Part shown: positions 24,048-35,019 of the stretch, piece after piece
Layout of the letters: each line of letters opens with the position of its first letter
How positions within the stretch are numbered: position 1 is the stretch's first letter
Assembly: GCA_964359225.1 (NCBI GenBank)
Contig: CAYHSI010000001.1
Location: 1 to 40,479 of the forward strand
Source: an uncultured Anaerolineaceae bacterium
Lineage (GTDB): Bacteria; Chloroflexota; Anaerolineae; Anaerolineales; E44-bin32
Direction: 5' to 3'
DNA: 40,479 nt
The notes under the pieces: generated by a model
Told to the model about the DNA's origin: nothing
Database searches by the model: none
Seen by the model: only the letters and a program-made list of their open reading frames with translations
Program-made: the position numbers and the translations under genes

Positions 24048-24130
24048 CGCACGTACCTGATCTAGCTCGTTTGTTCCATTTGGACCGACAAATCTCACCC
24101 AGTTTCACCAGAGAAGCCGGAGGGGACCGC

Positions 24131-27100
24131 GTGGAAGCCAAAGGTTTTCGTGCCCTGAAGATTAGTTTGGCGTCTCCGGAGACGATTCTCAGTTGGTCAT
24201 ACGGAGAGGTGCTTAAGCCGGAAACGATCAACTATCGCCGGCTGCGGCCGGAGAAAGACGGGCTGTTCTGCGAGGCGATCTTTGGACCGACCAAAGATTG
24301 GCAATGCTATTGCGGCAAATACAAGAACATCCGCTTTAAGGGCATCACCTGCGAGAAATGCGGCGTGGAGGTCACCCGGGCGTCGGTTCGCCGGGAGCGG
24401 ATGGGGCACATCGGGCTGGCCGCTCCAGTTGCCCATGTCTGGTACACCCGTCGGGTCCCGTCCTACCTCGGATTGTTGCTGGACATTTCGCGTCGGAATC
24501 TGGACCGGGTGCTCTACTTCGCTCAGTACATCGTGACCCACGTCGACGAAGAAGCTCGCCGGCGGGCGATCAAGCGGATTGACGACGAGATTGTTGCGCT
24601 GGACCGGGCTCAGCAAGAGGCGATGACCGCGCAGCTAAGTGAGATCAAATCGAGACGGAAAGAGGAGCTTGAGGAGCTGAAGGCCCGCCAGAAGGAACTG
24701 AAGGCCGAGTATGAAGAGCAGGTCGCCCAACTCTTCGATCCACTGATCCGAGAAGGGCAGCGGTTGGAGCGCGAGCTGCGGGAAAAAATTGGGAAGTCCG
24801 TTCGGGCCCCGATTCATTTCAAGGCGGTCAAGAAATCGATCGTGGACAAGGGGGAGACGGTCTCGAAGGAGCACGTCAGTCAAGTCCAGAAACTGGTCAA
24901 GCAGGAGCTCGAGGAAATCGAGGCCGGGGCCAAGAAGAAACTGGATCGGCAGCTCGACAAGCTCAAGGCTCAGCTCGAACAGATTAAGGAAGAATCGGAG
25001 CAAGAAGCCGACCAGGCGAAGGGCGCTCCTCAGGCGGAGAATCTGGCTCAAGCCGAGGCGCTTGCGAAGCAGCGCGAAGAACTTGAGACGATCAGCCAGA
25101 TGATGTTTCTGGGGGAAACCCGCTACCGGGAGCTTAAGTCCCAGTGGGGACAGGTCTTCCGGGCGGATATGGGCGCCGAAGCCTTCTACGAGATTCTGCA
25201 GCGGCTCGACTTGCCCAAGCTGGCCGAGGAACTCTGGGTGGAGGTGCGGACCTCCAAGAGCAAGCAGCGCAAGAAGAAGGCCACCAAACGGCTCAAAGTG
25301 GTGGAGGCCTTCCGCCGTTCCGGCAACCGGCCAGAGTGGATGGTTCTGACGGTGCTGCCCGTGATCCCACCGGATCTGCGTCCCATGGTCCAGCTGGATG
25401 GAGGCCGATTTGCGACCTCCGACCTGAACGACCTGTACCGCCGGGTGATCAATCGCAACAATCGGCTCAAGCGGCTGGTCGAGCTCGGGGCGCCGGATGT
25501 GATCGTGCGCAACGAGAAGCGGATGCTGCAAGAGGCGGTCGATTCGCTGATCGATAACGCGCAGCGCGGGAAGGCACTCTCCCGGCGTGGGCGGAGAGAA
25601 TTGAAGTCGTTGAGCGACATGCTCAAGGGCAAGAAAGGTCGCTTCCGACGCAACTTGCTCGGCAAGCGGGTCGACTACTCGGGACGATCGGTAATTGTGA
25701 TTGGCCCGCACTTAAAGCTCCATCAATGCGGGCTGCCCAAAGCCATGGCGCTCGAGTTGTACCGGCCTTTCGTGATCTCCAAGTTGGTTATGTACAACTA
25801 TGTGGCGAACGTTAAGGGCGCCAAGCGGATCATTGAACGCACCCGTCCCGAGGTTTGGGAGGTACTGGAAGAGGTCATCAAGGACCGGCCGGTGCTGCTC
25901 AACCGAGCTCCAACCCTGCATCGACTTGGGATCCAGGCTTTCGAGCCAGTGTTGGTCGAAGGCAAGGCGATTCAACTTCATCCGCTGGTCTGCGCCGCAT
26001 TCAATGCCGACTTCGACGGAGATCAGATGTCGGTCCACGTGCCGCTTTCCAAGCGGGCCGTAACTGAGGCCCGGGAATTGATGCTTTCCAGCAGGAATCT
26101 GCTGAAACCCGCCGACGGCGAACCGATCGTTGGACCCTCGAAGGACATGGTGCTCGGGGTGTACTACTTGACCATGGCGCAGGACGGGCGTACCCAGAAG
26201 GGCGCCGGACGAGCGTTTTCCGACTTGGAAGAAGTGGAAATGGCCTACGCCCTGGGCCAGGTCCAGGTCCACGCTCCGATTCGGCTGCTTACTCAGACCT
26301 GGTACGACGACCAGGGAGAGCGGCTCGCCCAACCTGAGCGGCGACTGATCGACACGACCGTTGGCCGAGTGCTTTTTAACGACGTCCTCCCGGAGGAGCT
26401 GCGCTTCGTCAACCGGGTGTTGGACAAGGAAGCGATGCAGGAACTGGTGGGCGACGTATACGACCTGCTGCGCGAGGAAGGGACTCCGGCGATTGTCGAC
26501 GCGATCAAAGACATTGGGTTCGCCTACGCCACTCGCTCGGGCACGACCATCGCGGTTTCGGACATCACGGTGCCGGAAGCAAAAAAGGCGATCGTCGCCA
26601 GAACGCTGGAAGAGGCAGAGGCGGTTCGGAAGGACTACCTGCGTGGTTTGCTGACCGAGCAAGAGCAGAACGAGCGGATCATCGAACTGTGGCAAAACAC
26701 GACAACCGAGGTCGCGGCGGCAGTCAAGAGCGGAATGGATCCGGCGGGCAACCTGAGCACGATGGCGATCTCCGGCGCCACCAAGGGAGGCTTCGGACCG
26801 ATTTCGCAGCTGGCCGGCATGCGGGGCCTCATGGCAGATCCGGCAGGCCGGATCATCCCGCTGCCAATTCGGTCCAACTTCCGGGATGGGCTCAACACGC
26901 TGGAGTACTTCATCTCGACCCACGGGGCGCGCAAGGGTCTGACCGACACTGCGCTGCGCACCGCCGACGCCGGATACCTGACTCGGCGTTTGGTTGACGT
27001 CGCGCAGGACATGATCATCAATTCGGATGACTGCGGCACCGAAGACGGAATGATGATCCGAACCGCCGACGATATCGCGGGCCAGGATTTCATCCTCCGC

Positions 27101-28429
27101 CAGCTGGGCAGGGTGCTGGCGAAGCGGGTGGCCGACCCGAAGACGGGGGAGGTGATCTTCGCCCGCGGCGCGCTGCTGGATGCTAAGGCTGCCAAGCAGC
27201 TGGCCTCGGCGGGCGTGGAGGAAGTTTTGGTTCGATCGCCGCTGACTTGCGAGTTGCAGTTCGGGCTCTGCGCCCAGTGTTATGGCATGGACCTGGGGCG
27301 GGGGAAGATGGTCGAGCTGGGGGCCGCGGTCGGGATCGTGGCTGCCCAATCGATCGGAGAACCCGGAACCCAACTGACCCTGCGCACGTTTCACACCGGC
27401 GGTGTGGCGGCGGGTGGCGATATCACCACCGGCCTACCCAGGGTCGAGGAGCTCTTCGAAGCCCGCAAGAAGCCGAAAGGCGAGGCGGTCACCTCCGAGA
27501 TCGAGGGAACCGTTCGGATTATCTCGGCGGATACTCCGAGTGGCCAGCGGGTGGTCCAGGTCTTGGAGAGCCAGCTGCTCAGAGACGAATACACGGTCCC
27601 AGGCAATTGGTCGCTGCGGATCGAGAACGGCGACAATGTAGAGACCGGCGCCACGTTGGCCAGCCGCGGCGAGTCGACGATCGCGGCCAGCCATGGCGGC
27701 AAAGCCCGGGTCAAGGACCGCAAGGTGACAGTCTCGTATGAGCAACGCGAGCAGGTCGAATACGAGGTGCCGGCCAGCGCCCGATTGCTGGTTGACCACG
27801 GCCAAAGGGTTTCGGCGGGCCAGCAGCTGACCGAGGGGTCGCTCAATCCCCACCGGATCCTGCGGATTCTCGGCCGGGAGGCCTGCGAAGTCTACCTGCT
27901 GACGGAAGTGCAAAAGGTCTACCGCTCGCAGGGCCAGAACATTAACGACAAACACTTCGAGGTGATCATCCGGAAGATGCTCTCGAAGGTCCAGATCTCG
28001 CAGCCCGGCGGGACGAGCTTGCTGCCGGGCGACCTGATCGATCGGCTCTACTTGCATCGGCTGAATGCTCGAGTGCTGGCCGAAGGCAAGCGACCGGCCC
28101 GAGCGATGCAGGCATTGCTGGGGATCAGCAAGGCCTCATTGAGCACCGAGTCCTTCCTCTCGGCCTCATCCTTCCAACACACCATCAAGGTGTTGGCGGG
28201 GGCCGCGATCGAAGGCAAGATCGACTACCTGCGGGGCCTCAAGGAAAACGTGATCATCGGCAAGCTGATTCCGGCCGGCACCGGTTTTCCCGGAGAAGAA
28301 GTCGTGCTCCACGATGAACGGCTAGATGGAGAGCGGCCGATCGGGCCGGTTGGTGAGCTGGAGCCGGTCGCCGAGTTGGTTGGGGAGGAGCCAATTCCCG
28401 AAGCTGCCGAGACGGTCGCCGCCGACTGA
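24131..28429 (+). CDS. rpoC: DNA-directed RNA polymerase subunit beta-prime
   Basis: Unmistakable beta-prime motifs are present. These include [26 protein letters not shown], the zinc finger CYCGKYK...CEKCGVEV, the catalytic NADFDGD, and trigger-loop/bridge-helix regions. I chose GTG 24131, 7 nt after GGAGG at 24119-24123; the ORF track start 24071 adds 20 unconserved residues. A ~180-aa charged insertion lies between conserved regions A and B. Confidence 0.97.
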
Positions 28430-28501: not shown

Positions 28502-29035
28502 ATGAAATACGCGATTTTCGCACACGGAGGCAAGCAGTATCTTGCAGAAGAAGGTGGCAAGATCGAAGTCGATCGCCTGGCGCTTGAAGTGGGCAAGCCA
28601 GTCGAGTTCGAGGAGATCTTGCTGGTATCCGACGGCAAGCAGATCGAGGTCGGATCACCGTACGTGACCGGCGCCAAAGTCAAAGGCACGGTCGTCGAAC
28701 ACCCTAACGGCAAGAAGATTATCGTCTTCAAACACCATCCCAAGCACCGCTATCGGCGAACGCAGGGTCAGCGCCGCCGGCTAACCCGGATCTCGATCGA
28801 GGCAGTTGGGGTCCTCGGCCCGGACCAACAGGCTCTCGAGCCGGCCCGGAAACCGGCAGCCGAACCGGCGGCCAAACCGGCGGCCAAACGGGCGGCCAAA
28901 CCGGCGGCCAAACGGGCGGCAAAGCCCCCGGCCAAACGGGCGGCCCTGAAGCGAAGTGCCCCGAAGCAGTCCGGGCAGACCCGCAAGACCGCCGGGAAGT
29001 CCAAGTCGCCTCGGGCGAAGAAGAAGCAGGGTTGA
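28502..29035 (+). CDS. rplU: 50S ribosomal protein L21 with a ~75-aa Lys/Ala/Pro-rich C-terminal extension
   Basis: [24 protein letters not shown]...[29 protein letters not shown] is a canonical L21 core (~103 aa). The remaining residues are [12 protein letters not shown] repeats and a basic tail. Confidence 0.93.
28853..28948 (+). repeat. Eight tandem copies of a 12-nt unit (CCGGCGGCCAAA and variants) inside rplU
   Basis: Read directly: ccggcagccgaa ccggcggccaaa ccggcggccaaa cgggcggccaaa ccggcggccaaa cgggcggcaaag cccccggccaaa cgggcggccctg. This encodes [32 protein letters not shown]. Confidence 0.9.
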
Positions 29036-29039
29036 TCTT

Positions 29040-29309
29040 ATGGCACACAAGAAAGGCGGGGGATCCACCCGCAACGGCCGAGACAGCCACTCCCAGCGTC
29101 TGGGAGTCAAGCGATACGCCGGCGAATACCTGCGTTCTGGCAACATCATCATCCGCCAGCGCGGAAGTCGGATCCATCCGGGGTTGAATGTCGACAAAGG
29201 CGGAGACGATACACTCTTCGCTACGGCCGATGGCGTATTGAAGTTTGATTTCGGGCCCGGCGGGCGCCGGCGGGCCAATGTCATTCCACAAACGGCGATC
29301 GTCCAGTGA
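29040..29309 (+). CDS. rpmA: 50S ribosomal protein L27
   Basis: [29 protein letters not shown]...IIRQRG is the L27 signature. I chose ATG 29040; the ORF track start 28956 lies inside rplU. There is no N-terminal pro-peptide. Confidence 0.95.
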
Positions 29310-29779
29310 GACCAGGCATTCATCCCAAGTACTTCCCGAACGCAACGGTGATTTGTTCCTGCGGCAACACCTGGACCACCGGGTCGACGGTCGAGCTGAT
29401 TCACACCGATGTCTGTTCCAACTGTCATCCCTTCTATACCGGGGAACAGCGGATTGTCGACACCGAAGGCCAGGTTGACCGCTTCTATCGGAAGCTCGAA
29501 GCCCGCCAGGGCTACCTGCAGGAGATTCGCGAACGGGAGGTGGCACGCACTTCGCCCTCGATTCCGATCTCCGAGTTGGAGTTGGGCAAGCGCGCCGAGC
29601 AGGCGCTGGCCCAGGCCGGGATTACCCAGGTCGGCCAGGCGCTGGAGCTCATGCAGCAAGGGGATCTTGCAATCTTGGCGATTGAGAACTTTGGTCGCAA
29701 GAGCCTCTCCGACTTGAAGCGCCGGCTCAAAGCGCGAGGATTCGAACTCCCCACCGCGGCAAAGGAGCCGCAGGTGTAG
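29306..29779 (+). CDS. rpmE: 50S ribosomal protein L31 (Zn-ribbon type) fused to an RNA polymerase alpha-CTD-like helix-hairpin-helix domain
   Basis: Residues 1-66 ([63 protein letters not shown]) are a full L31 with both CxC/CxxC pairs. Residues ~85-147 ([63 protein letters not shown]) align with E. coli alpha-CTD ([58 protein letters not shown]). The GTG start overlaps the rpmA stop (GTGA). Confidence 0.85.
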
Positions 29780-29811: not shown

Positions 29812-29844
29812 AAGGCAGGTGCCACCCGCACCTGCCTTTTCGTT
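29812..29844 (+). terminator. Rho-independent terminator after rpmE
   Basis: GGCAGGTGC (29814-29822) pairs perfectly with GCACCTGCC (29828-29836), with loop CACCC. Flanking A-T pairs extend the stem to 11 bp. TTTTCGTT follows at 29837-29844. Confidence 0.75.
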
Positions 29845-29863: not shown

Positions 29864-30424
29864 TTGACCGGTTCGATTGAAGTCATCACCGGGTCGATGT
29901 TCAGCGGGAAGACCGATGAATTGATCCGCCGTCTGCGACGGGCGACGATCGCCCGGCAGCAAGTTCAAGTATTCAAACCGCAGGTGGACACCCGCTATCA
30001 GGTGGACAGGCTGACCTCTCACGCCGGGAGTCAATTCGAGGCGACCCCGGTGGCCGAGGTGGACCAGATTCCGGGGCTGGTGGCAGCCGAGTCAACCGTC
30101 GTGGCATTTGATGAGGCGCAGTTTTTCGATCCGGCCATCATTGAAGTGTGCCGGGAATTGGCCGATCGAGGCTTGCGGGTGATTGTGGCCGGATTGGACA
30201 CCGACTTCCGCGGCGACCCGTTCGGCCCGGTGCCGGTCCTGATGGCGGTTGGCGAACGGGTAGATAAGCTGCAGGCGATCTGCATGGTCTGCGGGGAGGC
30301 CGCCAGCCGGACCCAACGGCTAATTGACGGCAGGCCGGCCCGCGCCTCGGAGCCGGTGATCGCGGTGGGGGCCAGTGAGCTTTACGAAGCACGCTGCCGC
30401 AAGCATCACGAGGTACCGAAATGA
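29864..30424 (+). CDS. tdk: Thymidine kinase
   Basis: P-loop [23 protein letters not shown], and the C-terminal zinc motif CMVCGEAA...ARCRKHH. The ORF track start 29819 lies inside the terminator hairpin. I prefer TTG 29864, 9 nt after AGAGGAGAG (29846-29854), which gives [17 protein letters not shown]. Confidence 0.88.
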
Positions 30425-33918: not shown

Positions 33919-35019
33919 ATGACGCTGCTTGGCAAAGGCTACTACATCTGGCAGATCTGGAATTGCGAGGGGGGTGATCCGAGCGCGATCGCCTCTAAGG
34001 CCAAGTCCGCCGGCTTATCGCATGTTCTGGTAAAGATCGCGGATGGGACGCTGCTGTACAACGTGGACAAGAACAGCAAGCAAGACTTGGTGCCCCCGCT
34101 CATCGCCGCCTGTCGGAAGGAGGGCATCCAAGTCTGGGGCTGGCATTACATCCGTGGCAGTAACCCGATCGGAGAAGCCCGGATCGCCGTTCAACGTAGT
34201 CTGGACCTGGGAGTGGACGGTTATGTCATCGATGCCGAGGGAGAATTCCAGACAGGGAGGAAGCAGTCCGCGGCCCGCCGCTTTATGCAGGAGCTTCGCG
34301 CGGGTCTGCCGAATCTCCCGGTGGCCCTCAGCACCTACCGTTTCCCAAAGCGCCACACCCCATTCCCATTCGCCGAGTTTCTGGAGGGTTGCGATTACGC
34401 CATGCCGCAGGTGTACTACGAGCAAGCCCACAATCCAGAGGCCCAACTCGAATTGTGCGTGGAGCAATACCTGGCCCTCAACCCAGCTCGACCGGTCATC
34501 CCGACTGCCCCGACCTACGGCCGCGGCAGCTGGCGGCCGACCGCGGAGGAGACCACTCGGTTTCTTGCTAAAGCCAAGGAACTTGGCCTGAGCGCGGCGA
34601 ACGCCTGGAGCTGGGATGTCGCCTCGCGCGACGCATACAGCGACCTGTGGGCCTCAGTGGCGGCCTTTGAGTGGCCTACCGAACCCCCGGTTGCCGACAT
34701 GCCTGAACGGCTGGTCGGCCGGCTGAACGAGGGCGACGGCAATTTGGTGGCAGATCTCTACGCCGAAAACGCGGCACATGTCACCGGGGAGCGGATGGTA
34801 TTCTCGCGGAGCGCAATCGCCGACTGGTATCGCCAGCTACTCGGCGAATTGCTCCCAGGGGGGGAATTCGCAGTCACCGGAAAAGCGGGATCCGGCTCAA
34901 CCCGCCACTACACTTGGACCGCCCGCAGTCCGAGGGGGCAGGTCTTGAATGGCAACGACACCCTGGGTCTCCGCGAAGAACAGATTCAGTTCCACTTCAG
35001 CTACTTTACAATTCGCTAG
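33919..35019 (+). CDS. Hypothetical cytoplasmic protein: TIM-barrel glycoside-hydrolase-like N-domain plus NTF2/SnoaL-like C-domain
   Basis: The N-terminal ~230 aa alternate beta/alpha. Landmarks (SHVLVKIADGT, IQVWGWHYI, GYVIDAEGEF) are reminiscent of GH25-like lysozyme barrels. The C-terminal ~110 aa (LVGRLNEGDGNLVADLYAENAAHV...IQFHFSYFTI) looks NTF2-like. There is no signal peptide. The assignment is tentative. Confidence 0.6.
   Translation: MTLLGKGYYIWQIWNCEGGDPSAIASKAKSAGLSHVLVKIADGTLLYNVDKNSKQDLVPPLIAACRKEGIQVWGWHYIRGSNPIGEARIAVQRSLDLGVDGYVIDAEGEFQTGRKQSAARRFMQELRAGLPNLPVALSTYRFPKRHTPFPFAEFLEGCDYAMPQVYYEQAHNPEAQLELCVEQYLALNPARPVIPTAPTYGRGSWRPTAEETTRFLAKAKELGLSAANAWSWDVASRDAYSDLWASVAAFEWPTEPPVADMPERLVGRLNEGDGNLVADLYAENAAHVTGERMVFSRSAIADWYRQLLGELLPGGEFAVTGKAGSGSTRHYTWTARSPRGQVLNGNDTLGLREEQIQFHFSYFTIR

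Follow-up and report, generated by a model that had tools for sequence, protein, structure and literature searches.

Ribosomal protein bL31 fused in frame to an RNA polymerase alpha-CTD-like domain in Anaerolineae-type Chloroflexota

Throughout the Anaerolineae group of Chloroflexota, ribosomal protein L31 is carried as a fusion with an extra, conserved C-terminal domain that resembles the C-terminal domain of the RNA polymerase (RNAP) alpha subunit, RpoA. The example described here is encoded on contig CAYHSI010000001.1 of an uncultured Anaerolineaceae bacterium, within a stretch of 40,479 nucleotides (the window). It is fully supported that a complete zinc-type L31 is fused in frame to an alpha-CTD-like domain. 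The gene is a genuine rpmE of Anaerolineae-type Chloroflexota and encodes one polypeptide, which is not an RNAP subunit because it has no alpha N-terminal domain and has bL31 in its place. Re-reading the open reading frame and its translation returned exactly the 157 amino acids reported in an earlier note on this DNA; the frame begins with GTG, the coordinates include the stop codon, and the product is 17.6 kDa. The gene and its parts are as follows.

29306..29779, plus strand: rpmE, bL31 and alpha-CTD-like fusion, a single open reading frame with orthologues in about 80 species-level genomes.
29306..29503, plus strand: bL31 domain, residues 1-66 (PF01197, NF000612; the closest PDB sequences are 70S bL31 chains).
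29504..29557, plus strand: connector, residues 67-84, ending in a T-S-P motif (AlphaFold secondary structure, alignment).
29558..29752, plus strand: alpha-CTD-like (HhH)2 domain, residues 85-149 (PF03118, AlphaFold, Foldseek).

Searches of the translation with the Pfam profiles for both domains scored above the curated cut-offs. PF01197 (Ribosomal_L31) matches residues 1-63 with 95.7 bits against a cut-off of 27 (E 1.9e-27), and two L31 equivalog models, TIGR00105 (85.2 bits, cut-off 38.35) and NF000612 from NCBIfam (94 bits, cut-off 70), match as well; together the L31 profile matches span residues 1-67. The zinc ribbon is of type A, CxC...CxxC, with C17, C19, C37, and C40 all present, and these cysteines together with the Pfam and NCBIfam matches bear out the earlier description of residues 1-66 as a complete zinc-type L31. 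In the alignment of 79 family members the ligands are nearly invariant.

29354..29362, plus strand: first pair of zinc ligands, C17-x-C19, kept in 78-79 of 79 family members.
29414..29425, plus strand: second pair of zinc ligands, C37-x-x-C40, kept in 79 of 79 family members.

Residues 1-66 therefore correspond to a complete model type A bL31 (RpmE) with its CxC...CxxC motif; however, model bL31 proteins of both type A and type B (YkgM/YtiA) end at about 65-85 residues, while here there are about 90 more. None of the bL31 chains in the PDB aligns to the query past residue 79. bL31 spans the only known protein-protein bridge from the 50S central protuberance to the mobile 30S head. Within this bridge, B1b, the N-terminal domain of bL31 contacts uL5 at the central protuberance, its C-terminal part contacts uS13 at the 30S head, and its C-terminal residues contribute to subunit association (PMC10931766). 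From this homology and from the rplU-rpmA-rpmE operon described below, we infer that the window protein is a component of the 50S subunit and 70S ribosome at bridge B1b.

The C-terminal part matches PF03118 (RNA_pol_A_CTD) over residues 80-142 with 40.9 bits against a cut-off of 23.8 (E 1.7e-10), and the match covers profile positions 7-66 of 67. Eight NCBIfam RpoA models align locally, to residues 70-152, with 18-42 bits against cut-offs of 228-523, and when residues 71-157 were compared with PDB sequences every significant match was RpoA. The AlphaFold model has a pLDDT of 84-90 over residues 81-150, and this part superposes on solved RpoA alpha-CTDs with TM scores of 0.74-0.92. The Foldseek matches include 7vpd_S (TM 0.92, 1.1 A), 8y5t_A2 (TM 0.79, 2.1 A), 7khc_A (1.7 A), and 3n4m_C (TM 0.74); the query was the full-length model, so that only the per-target TM values are meaningful, and its global TM is poor because the two domains are independent. 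The alpha-CTD-like assignment made in the earlier note thus agrees with the profile match, the fold match, and the comparative evidence. The domain shares with the RpoA alpha-CTD the (HhH)2 fold of four to five helices, at 28-36% sequence identity, and both sit on a connector at the C-terminus of their carrier; however, the carrier here is bL31 in place of the alpha N-terminal domain, a helical connector is predicted, and there are extra conserved basic residues, K139 and R142, on the last helix. Among the 79 sequences, mean pairwise identity is higher in the extra domain (0.53) than in the connector (0.41) or the tail (0.30), and the mean net charge of the domain is about +1 (range -6 to +4).

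The connector had been described as a charged linker of about 18 amino acids that is flexible. The charge is confirmed, residues 67-84 being net basic with a mean net charge of +2.7 over the 79 sequences, but the model does not show a disordered linker, as AlphaFold places residues 56-81, including the connector, in one long helix (pLDDT about 70-84). The serine of the T-S-P motif, S83, is conserved in 68 of the 79 sequences. The connector also contains a Shine-Dalgarno-like run.

29535..29542, plus strand: SD-like GGGAGGTG, codons R77-E78-V79, inside the connector and not an internal start.

Both the presence of this run and the lack of a properly spaced start codon after it had been reported, and both are correct. 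The sole in-frame start-type codon nearby, GTG at 29540 (V79), abuts the run, and V79 is present in one of the 79 sequences. No conserved Met, Val, or Leu start candidate was found at residues 72-90 of these sequences. An internal translation start after the run was rejected, the spacing being wrong and a conserved start codon being absent; the run is explained by the codons of a conserved Arg-Glu.

About 80 species-level genomes of Anaerolineae and Thermofontia, including complete chromosomes, encode full-length orthologues, at identities down to 43%. Both Pfam domains are found in 119 of the best 120 clusters at 90% identity, with lengths of 155-185 amino acids. An artefact, in which a frameshift, misassembly, or gene-calling error merges a short rpmE with a distinct gene downstream, could be suspected from the unusual protein length and from one 79-amino acid gene call (P0126) that corresponds to residues 80-157 alone, which is most simply a fragment. 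The open reading frame is, however, uninterrupted in independent NCBI, ENA, JGI, and Logan assemblies at 43-99% identity, complete chromosomes among them, and in the 79 sequences conservation at the amino acid level continues across the junction between L31 and the alpha-CTD-like domain, with no conserved internal start. Because the same single open reading frame recurs in hundreds of independent assemblies, the artefact was rejected, and its probability can be considered negligible. The fusion is also encoded by metagenome-assembled genomes assigned to genera with cultured type species (Anaerolinea, Leptolinea, and Pelolinea). The databases label these proteins plain L31, and full-text literature searches, with inspection of PMC3353972, PMC10931766, PMC7203096, and PMC9297842, turned up no description of an L31-alpha-CTD fusion.

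The surrounding genes are those of a ribosomal protein operon. As previously noted, rpmE is the third gene after rpoC (24071-28429), following rplU and rpmA.

28502-29035, plus strand: rplU (L21), same operon, upstream (Pfam).
29040-29309, plus strand: rpmA (L27), same operon, upstream (Pfam).
29306..29309, plus strand: GTGA overlap of the rpmA stop codon (TGA, 29307-29309) with the rpmE start codon (GTG, 29306-29308) (sequence).
29812..29844, plus strand: terminator-like GC-rich hairpin of 11 bp, followed by UUUUCGUU, downstream of rpmE (RNA fold).

The GTGA overlap suggests translational coupling of rpmA and rpmE, and an identical four-nucleotide overlap between gene calls is found at related loci L081 and L084-L086. 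The hairpin has a folding energy of -27.1 kcal/mol (z = -2.6); a scan for promoter and terminator consensus sequences around rpmE found none on the plus strand and did not flag it. A scan of the window against Rfam gave no family above threshold and no leader element. The L21 encoded in the window also has a 70-residue tail rich in K, A, and P. Among 80 related loci, each with one L31 gene, the conserved order is rplU-rpmA-rpmE-tdk-hpt; L21 and L27 are upstream of the fusion gene in 78, and the rplU-rpmA-rpmE-tdk operon, in which tdk encodes thymidine kinase, is conserved in 78. The gene rpoC is directly upstream of the operon in five of the 80 genomes, and a meaning for its adjacency in the window was largely rejected for that reason; 11 loci have rpoB or rpoC no more than about 6 kb from the operon, and in 31 the gene of a response regulator found beside rpoB in the window is 3-6 kb downstream of the operon. 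When the window and the 80 loci (918 kb) were searched for rpoA or further alpha-CTD genes with an approximate Bacillus subtilis RpoA query, the L31 fusions alone matched, through their CTD part.

How far the domain retains the contact residues of the alpha-CTD was read from the HMMER alignment of the window protein to the Escherichia coli domain (PDB 1coo), with family counts taken from the 79 sequences. In E. coli the DNA-contacting "265 determinant" consists of R265, N268, N294, G296, K298, S299, and E302, while contacts with activators and sigma are made by the "287" surface (285-289) and the "261" determinant (D259/E261).

29591..29593, plus strand: R96, which aligns with the minor-groove arginine R265 of E. 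coli alpha (Arg in 74 and Lys in 4 of the 79 sequences).
29687..29704, plus strand: second HhH hairpin, N128-F-G-R-K-S133, equivalent to E. coli N294-L-G296-K-K298-S299 (alignment to 1coo).
29654..29662, plus strand: Q117-Q118-G119, an insertion of three residues relative to RpoA where the "287 determinant" would be (gap in 5 of the 5 RpoA alignments shown).

The alignment agrees with the earlier reading that R265, G296, K298, and S299 are kept and that N268 becomes Q; at the N294 equivalent the window protein has N. Two helix-hairpin-helix motifs with turns of the Gly-hydrophobic-Gly type are recognizable, as expected of an (HhH)2 domain, and one distant family member also matches HHH_5. The first hairpin is A-G-I, with G105 in 70 of 79 sequences, and the family form of the second is G-F-G-R-K-S, with G130 in 79, K132 in 65, and S133 in 58; the GhG hairpin is present in 77. 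The equivalents of R265, G296, K298, S299, and E302 are conserved in 73-100% of sequences (R265 as R in 94%, G296 in 100%, K298 in 82%, S299 in 73%), with E302 replaced by Asp in 82% of the family. At the position of N268 the family has Asp or Glu in 63% of sequences and Asn in 10%, and 96% have Gly at that of N294, which gives the canonical GhG turn found in non-specific HhH DNA binders. The RpoA signature R-S-x-N-C-L-K is lost, the C269 equivalent being Ala here. An intact surface for activators and sigma was not found in the family: the insertion, with G119 conserved in 74 of 79, separates the positions that align with residues 285 and 286, and the position of E261 is occupied by Glu in 42% of sequences and by Gly in 35%, although that of D259 is acidic in 95%.

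The rpmE genes of sister lineages, in the same operon slot, have other appendages: DUF4332, itself an HhH domain, or long charged tails rich in K, A, P, and E. The L31-DUF4332 set is narrow (26 full-length clusters and a truncated one, with identities of 80% or more), and DUF4332 is also abundant as a stand-alone 134-amino acid protein unlinked to rpmE. These forms share with the fusion the slot L21-L27-L31-thymidine kinase and the attachment at the L31 C-terminus, and all appear to be of nucleic-acid-binding type (HhH/H3TH-like or polycationic), although the modules differ. In one sister lineage an L31 without the zinc cysteines keeps the alpha-CTD-like domain; in contrast to Zur-type L31 paralogues, this gene is in the main operon and not at a separate locus. 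The presence of DUF4332/HHH_5 or charged tails in sister rpmE genes suggests that the appendages are interchangeable modules of nucleic-acid-binding type, which points to generic binding of nucleic acid or polyanions over RNAP-specific contacts and would make a ribosome-tethered, non-specific nucleic-acid binder near B1b the likeliest function.

We give about an even chance to the proposal that the domain is such a tethered binder, recognizing duplex nucleic acid without sequence specificity. The zinc-ribbon bL31 part would take its usual place in bridge B1b, as expected from known bL31, and from the end of the bridge at the 30S head the basic helical connector would project the 65-residue (HhH)2 domain, probably an ancient paralogue of the C-terminal domain of RpoA. 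Conserved R96 and the canonical G-F-G-R-K-S hairpin would make the contacts, with the conserved basic residues K138, K139, and R142 adding to them, and the ligand could be RNA at the ribosome (head or central-protuberance rRNA, or mRNA) or nearby DNA. The architecture, the fold, the class-wide conservation, the operon context, and the gain or loss of alpha-CTD contact residues are observed; incorporation of the fusion into the ribosome, its position there, and its binding to nucleic acid are proposed. The retained equivalents of R265, G296, K298, S299, and E302, the greater conservation of the domain than of the connector and tail, and the retention of the domain on the Cys-less L31 in the same slot all support a binder. 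Against this, the Asp or Glu common at the N268 equivalent would sit badly near a phosphate backbone, N268 being essential for UP-element binding in E. coli, and the net charge of the domain is only about +1. HhH motifs classically bind B-form DNA and not A-form RNA, so rRNA is not the obvious ligand.

The earlier note had proposed a physical link between ribosome and transcription machinery. In such a transcription-translation coupling adaptor, the bL31-borne alpha-CTD would bind partners of the RNAP alpha-CTD (NusA, sigma region 4, regulators directed at the alpha-CTD, or DNA just upstream of an RNAP engaged in transcription) and thereby tether the transcription complex to the 30S head. The domain keeps the fold and the R265/K298/S299 patch; in E. 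coli, DNA and the acidic AR2 domain of NusA both bind to this patch. The fold matches include TTC-B expressome entries from E. coli in which an alpha-CTD is modelled (8y5l, 8y5t), which indicates that alpha-CTDs can lie in ribosome-RNAP assemblies. The loci with rpoB or rpoC within about 6 kb (11 of 80) and those with the rpoB-flanking response regulator downstream (31) are also consistent with coupling. However, N268 and N294 are not conserved, the "287" surface has an insertion, the E261 equivalent is Glu in a minority, rpoC is immediately upstream in few genomes, and sister lineages swap in DUF4332 or low-complexity tails unrelated to RNAP. The expected anchor near uS13 is also some distance from the mRNA entry site: it is on the interface side of the head, while RNAP in known expressomes docks at mRNA entry. 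The known bridges (the KOW domain of NusG or RfaH to uS10, and NusA to uS2/uS5 in E. coli TTC-B) likewise consist of a small domain on a flexible tether, potentially linking ribosome and transcription complex, but those are transcription factors that bind the ribosome, whereas here a ribosomal protein bears an RNAP-type domain. It seems unlikely, though with an appreciable chance, that Anaerolineae ribosomes hold the DNA of the transcribed gene, or NusA or RNAP, via their own alpha-CTD copy on bL31; if true, these ribosomes would encode a coupling device of their own, different from the NusG-uS10 and NusA-uS2/uS5 bridges. In a more extreme version, the bL31-borne domain might share or take over functions of the RpoA CTD in Anaerolineae.

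There is a small chance that the domain is purely a protein-protein or architectural module, which would dock on a ribosomal protein or on a factor for ribosome assembly, hibernation, or subunit association and make no contact with nucleic acid, its HhH features being merely inherited. Lineage-specific extensions of ribosomal proteins commonly pack onto the ribosome surface, and the acidic N268 equivalent and near-neutral charge are compatible with a protein interface, as is the aid to subunit association given by the bL31 C-terminal residues (PMC10931766). Nevertheless, the best conserved exposed residues belong to the HhH hairpin or are basic ones of the sort that usually contact the backbone, and the swap with polycationic tails is easier to reconcile with a polyanion ligand than with a specific protein site. 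Alternatively, fusion protein that is free of the ribosome might regulate by binding DNA or RNA, perhaps controlling its own operon, rplU-rpmA-rpmE, or taking part in a response linked to zinc. In E. coli, bL31 represses its own translation and a paralogue is regulated by zinc (PMC10931766), and the added domain is of a DNA-binding type; but no Rfam element or leader was found in the window, the gene context gives no hint of regulation, the domain persists in the Cys-less orthologue, and class-wide conservation in the primary rpmE fits a ribosomal role more simply. An extraribosomal role is therefore considered very improbable.

If the domain is only a structural decoration, it adds modestly to the known extensions of ribosomal proteins. 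Other clade-restricted accretions that are annotated as the plain protein include chloroplast bL31c and extended ribosomal proteins of Actinobacteria and Bacteroidota, but most extensions of this kind are unstructured tails, while the extension here is a folded domain with a recognizable donor family, RpoA. Since metagenome-assembled genomes placed in genera with cultured type species encode the fusion, cryo-EM and biochemistry may be feasible. The DUF4332 and charged-tail versions suggest a general, unrecognized role of the L31 C-terminus in Chloroflexota. A folded domain of RNAP origin and DNA-binding type at the bL31 position, conserved across an abundant and poorly studied class, is a test case for how ribosomes gain new functional modules, and for whether ribosomes outside the model phyla are linked to nucleic acids or transcription in ways unlike those of E. 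coli or Bacillus.

The rpmE ORF (29306-29779, + strand) encodes 157 aa, as in the earlier note, and has a GTG start and a TAG stop; alignment with Thermus bL31 is residue for residue from Met1, so the start codon is correct. The two domains proposed there, L31 and the RpoA C-terminal domain, both score above their Pfam cut-offs: Ribosomal_L31 (PF01197) covers residues 1-63 with 95.7 bits against a cut-off of 27, and RNA_pol_A_CTD (PF03118) covers residues 80-142 with 40.9 bits against 23.8 (E 1.7e-10). In NCBIfam, L31 equivalogs exceed their own cut-offs and eight RpoA models match locally, over residues 70-152 only. Among PDB sequences, residues 1-67 resemble bL31 chains of many 70S structures, and residues 71-157 match RpoA alpha-CTDs only, the best from Streptomyces (E 1.4e-5), followed by E. 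coli (1coo), a cyanobacterium, Caulobacter, B. subtilis, and Mycobacterium; no PDB bL31 chain aligned past residue 79. A weak NCBIfam match (E 0.0023) pairs residues 73-152 (about 29522-29761) with an internal stretch (785-864) of PglW, a BREX kinase, which suggests that alpha-CTD-like HhH modules may also lie inside this defence protein.

An AlphaFold2 model, with 51 homologues as input, has two independent parts: a Zn-ribbon part of modest confidence and a C-terminal part with pLDDT 84-90 over residues 81-150. A helix is predicted at residues 56-81, which leaves the “linker” without predicted disorder. In Foldseek searches of the PDB the N-terminal part retrieved bL31 chains and the C-terminal part RpoA alpha-CTDs, namely 7vpd_S (TM 0.92, 1.1 Å, 59 columns), 7khc_A (1.7 Å, 65 columns), 8y5t_A2 (TM 0.79), and 3n4m_C, which is bound with CAP and DNA (TM 0.74). 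The superposition on an alpha-CTD, put forward in the earlier note as a check that could refute the fusion, thus supports the predicted fold (TM 0.74-0.92).

The architecture is real and clade-wide. In a search of 5.8 billion proteins, the best 120 clusters listed are 69-99% identical to the fusion protein, and 119 have both Pfam domains and are 155-185 aa long; all are named only “ribosomal protein L31” and the taxon, where given, is Chloroflexota. When a single genome from each species was scanned, 80 loci were found (43-74% identity); three are cut short or incomplete, and all the others encode both domains in full. Most bear the names Anaerolineae, Anaerolineales, or Anaerolineaceae, with MAGs assigned to Anaerolinea, Leptolinea, Pelolinea, and Ca. 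Villigracilis among them; about 28 carry the label “uncultured Chloroflexia bacterium,” a few are given just as Chloroflexota or Chloroflexi, and the remaining one is a chromosome from Phototrophicaceae (NCBI class Ca. Thermofontia). This single ORF in 119 of the 120 listed clusters and nearly all loci excludes an assembly or gene-call artefact, a frameshift included. No internal start codon is conserved across the 79 aligned fusion sequences, and the SD-like GGGAGGTG (29535-29542) is the codons of a conserved Arg-Glu pair. Among the representatives of a 50%-identity library, only 20 reached 1e-30 or lower, so the family is compact, consistent with a single origin. Mean pairwise identity is 0.71 in the L31 core, 0.53 in the alpha-CTD-like domain, 0.41 in the connector, and 0.30 in the tail; the domain is therefore clearly constrained.

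In E. coli, roles are assigned to alpha-CTD residues by the 265, 261, and 287 determinants. HMMER alignment of the window protein to 1coo gives R265=R96, N268=Q99, N294=N128, G296=G130, K298=K132, and S299=S133, in agreement with the five equivalents first proposed (R265, N268 to Q, G296, K298, S299). Relative to all RpoAs aligned, the fusion protein has a three-residue insertion, Q117-Q118-G119.

Equivalents of E. coli alpha-CTD residues in 79 fusion sequences
R265: R 94%, kept
G296: 100%, kept
K297: R 77%, Q 23%, kept
K298: 82%, kept
S299: 73%, kept
E302: Asp 82%, kept
D259: acidic 95%, kept
Hydrophobic core: kept
N268: Asp/Glu 63%, Asn 10%, changed
Cys269 (RpoA signature): Ala, changed
N294: Gly 96%, changed
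E261: Glu just 42%, changed
285-289 surface: insertion with conserved Gly, changed
Last helix, basic residues: K138 (78/79), K139 (72/79), R142 (72/79), gained

Since the N294 equivalent is Gly, the N-L-G of RpoA becomes G-F-G, a turn canonical for non-specific HhH DNA binders and found in 77 of the 79. Mean net charge of the domain is +0.8.

In order, the window carries mutL, a histidine kinase, a response regulator (minus strand), rpoB, rpoC, rplU, rpmA, and rpmE, then tdk, hpt, a CCA/poly(A) polymerase-type enzyme, and dinB; for rpoB and rpoC the identification rests on ORF size and sequence, for the other neighbours on Pfam.

24071-28429, +, rpoC ORF, 1452 aa
28502-29035, +, rplU (L21), 177 aa, Pfam L21 at residues 3-101
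29306-29309, +, GTGA, four-base overlap of rpmA (L27) stop and rpmE start
29812-29844, +, GC-rich, 11-bp, terminator-like hairpin between rpmE and tdk, then UUUUCGUU
33919-35019, +, 366-aa ORF downstream of dinB

L21 and L27 lie upstream of the fusion gene in 78 of the 80 loci, and tdk (72/80) and hpt (61/80) downstream. The earlier placement three genes after rpoC holds in the window (rpoC, rplU, rpmA, rpmE) and is lineage-specific, as rpoC is upstream in only five loci; rpoB is about 4 kb downstream in six others. A 4-nt L27/L31 gene-call overlap recurs in related loci L081 and L084-L086, and the overlap implies probable translational coupling. The hairpin (-27.1 kcal/mol, z = -2.6) was not flagged by a consensus terminator scan. 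The listed tdk GTG start (29819) falls within it, a TTG at 29864 sits 9 nt after GAGGAGAG, and in the ORF as listed the Pfam TK domain starts at residue 18; the TTG seems the more plausible start. The C-terminal ~70 residues of rplU are a K/A/P-rich repeat tail, and the L21-to-L31 distance ranges from ~500 to ~1000 nt across the 80 loci, suggesting that the tail comes and goes within Anaerolineae. The rpoC ORF has a long E/K/Q-rich, coiled-coil-like insertion (roughly residues 150-340); its annotated TTG start adds a stretch before the conserved beta-prime start, and the true start may be further downstream. No Pfam family matches the 366-aa ORF at E ≤ 1e-5, and this ORF is kept beside dinB in the five closest loci (L001-L004, L055).

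Related lineages have other C-terminal appendages on rpmE in the same L21-L27-L31-thymidine kinase operon.

L081 5001-5723, L31-DUF4332 fusion, L21-L27-L31-thymidine kinase slot
L087 2903-3577 (P0159) and L088 4001-4873 (P0186), K/A/P/E-tailed L31
L084-L086 6001-6450 (P0143), Cys-less (non-zinc) L31 with alpha-CTD/HHH_5-like domain, primary L21-L27-L31 slot

The 240-aa L31-DUF4332/HHH_5 fusion (P0145, P0318; proteins P0145, P0309-P0334) is narrow: its 26 full-length clusters and a single truncated one share at least 80% identity. Its DUF4332 part is 64-73% identical to stand-alone 134-aa proteins, abundant in Chloroflexi and unlinked to rpmE (L082, L083). Low-complexity K/A/P/E-rich tails of 100-220 residues replace the folded domain in the same slot, also in P0144, P0158, P0165, P0193 (named Chloroflexota), and P0207. 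Loci L084-L086 are from a Chloroflexota lineage (contigs 1.5-4.6 Mb), with relA/spoT and dinB nearby. Because such varied appendages share one slot, the L31 C-terminus is an accretion hot-spot in Chloroflexota; its modules are of nucleic-acid-binding or polycationic type.

bL31 forms bridge B1b by contacting uL5 (central protuberance) through its N-terminal domain and uS13 (30S head) through its C-terminal part (PMC10931766). From this placement the connector and alpha-CTD-like domain would emerge at the 30S-head end of the bridge. The favoured reading, to which we give about an even chance, is a ribosome-tethered, sequence-non-specific duplex nucleic-acid binder, whose inferred ligand would be RNA at the ribosome or DNA; it is favoured by the conserved Arg and HhH hairpin patch, by the shift of the hairpin to canonical GhG, and by the interchangeability of the domain with DUF4332 and charged tails. 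The earlier note had proposed that the domain could couple the ribosome physically to the transcription machinery. The fold and the R265, G296, K298, and S299 equivalents stood; however, N268 and N294 are lost in the family, the activator surface (285-289) is remodelled, linkage to rpoC is rare (5/80), and the same L31 position can hold modules unrelated to RNAP, and coupling is unlikely. A purely protein-docking role for the domain appears rather improbable, and an extraribosomal regulatory role for the fusion very improbable.

Precomputed Pfam annotations already show the architecture, but every source says plain L31; a full-text literature search, with most subscription journals outside its coverage, found no description of the fusion. 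It is of the same kind as known ribosomal proteins with a lineage-specific accreted domain. Its interest lies in the apparent RNAP origin of the domain and in the position it would occupy on the ribosome.
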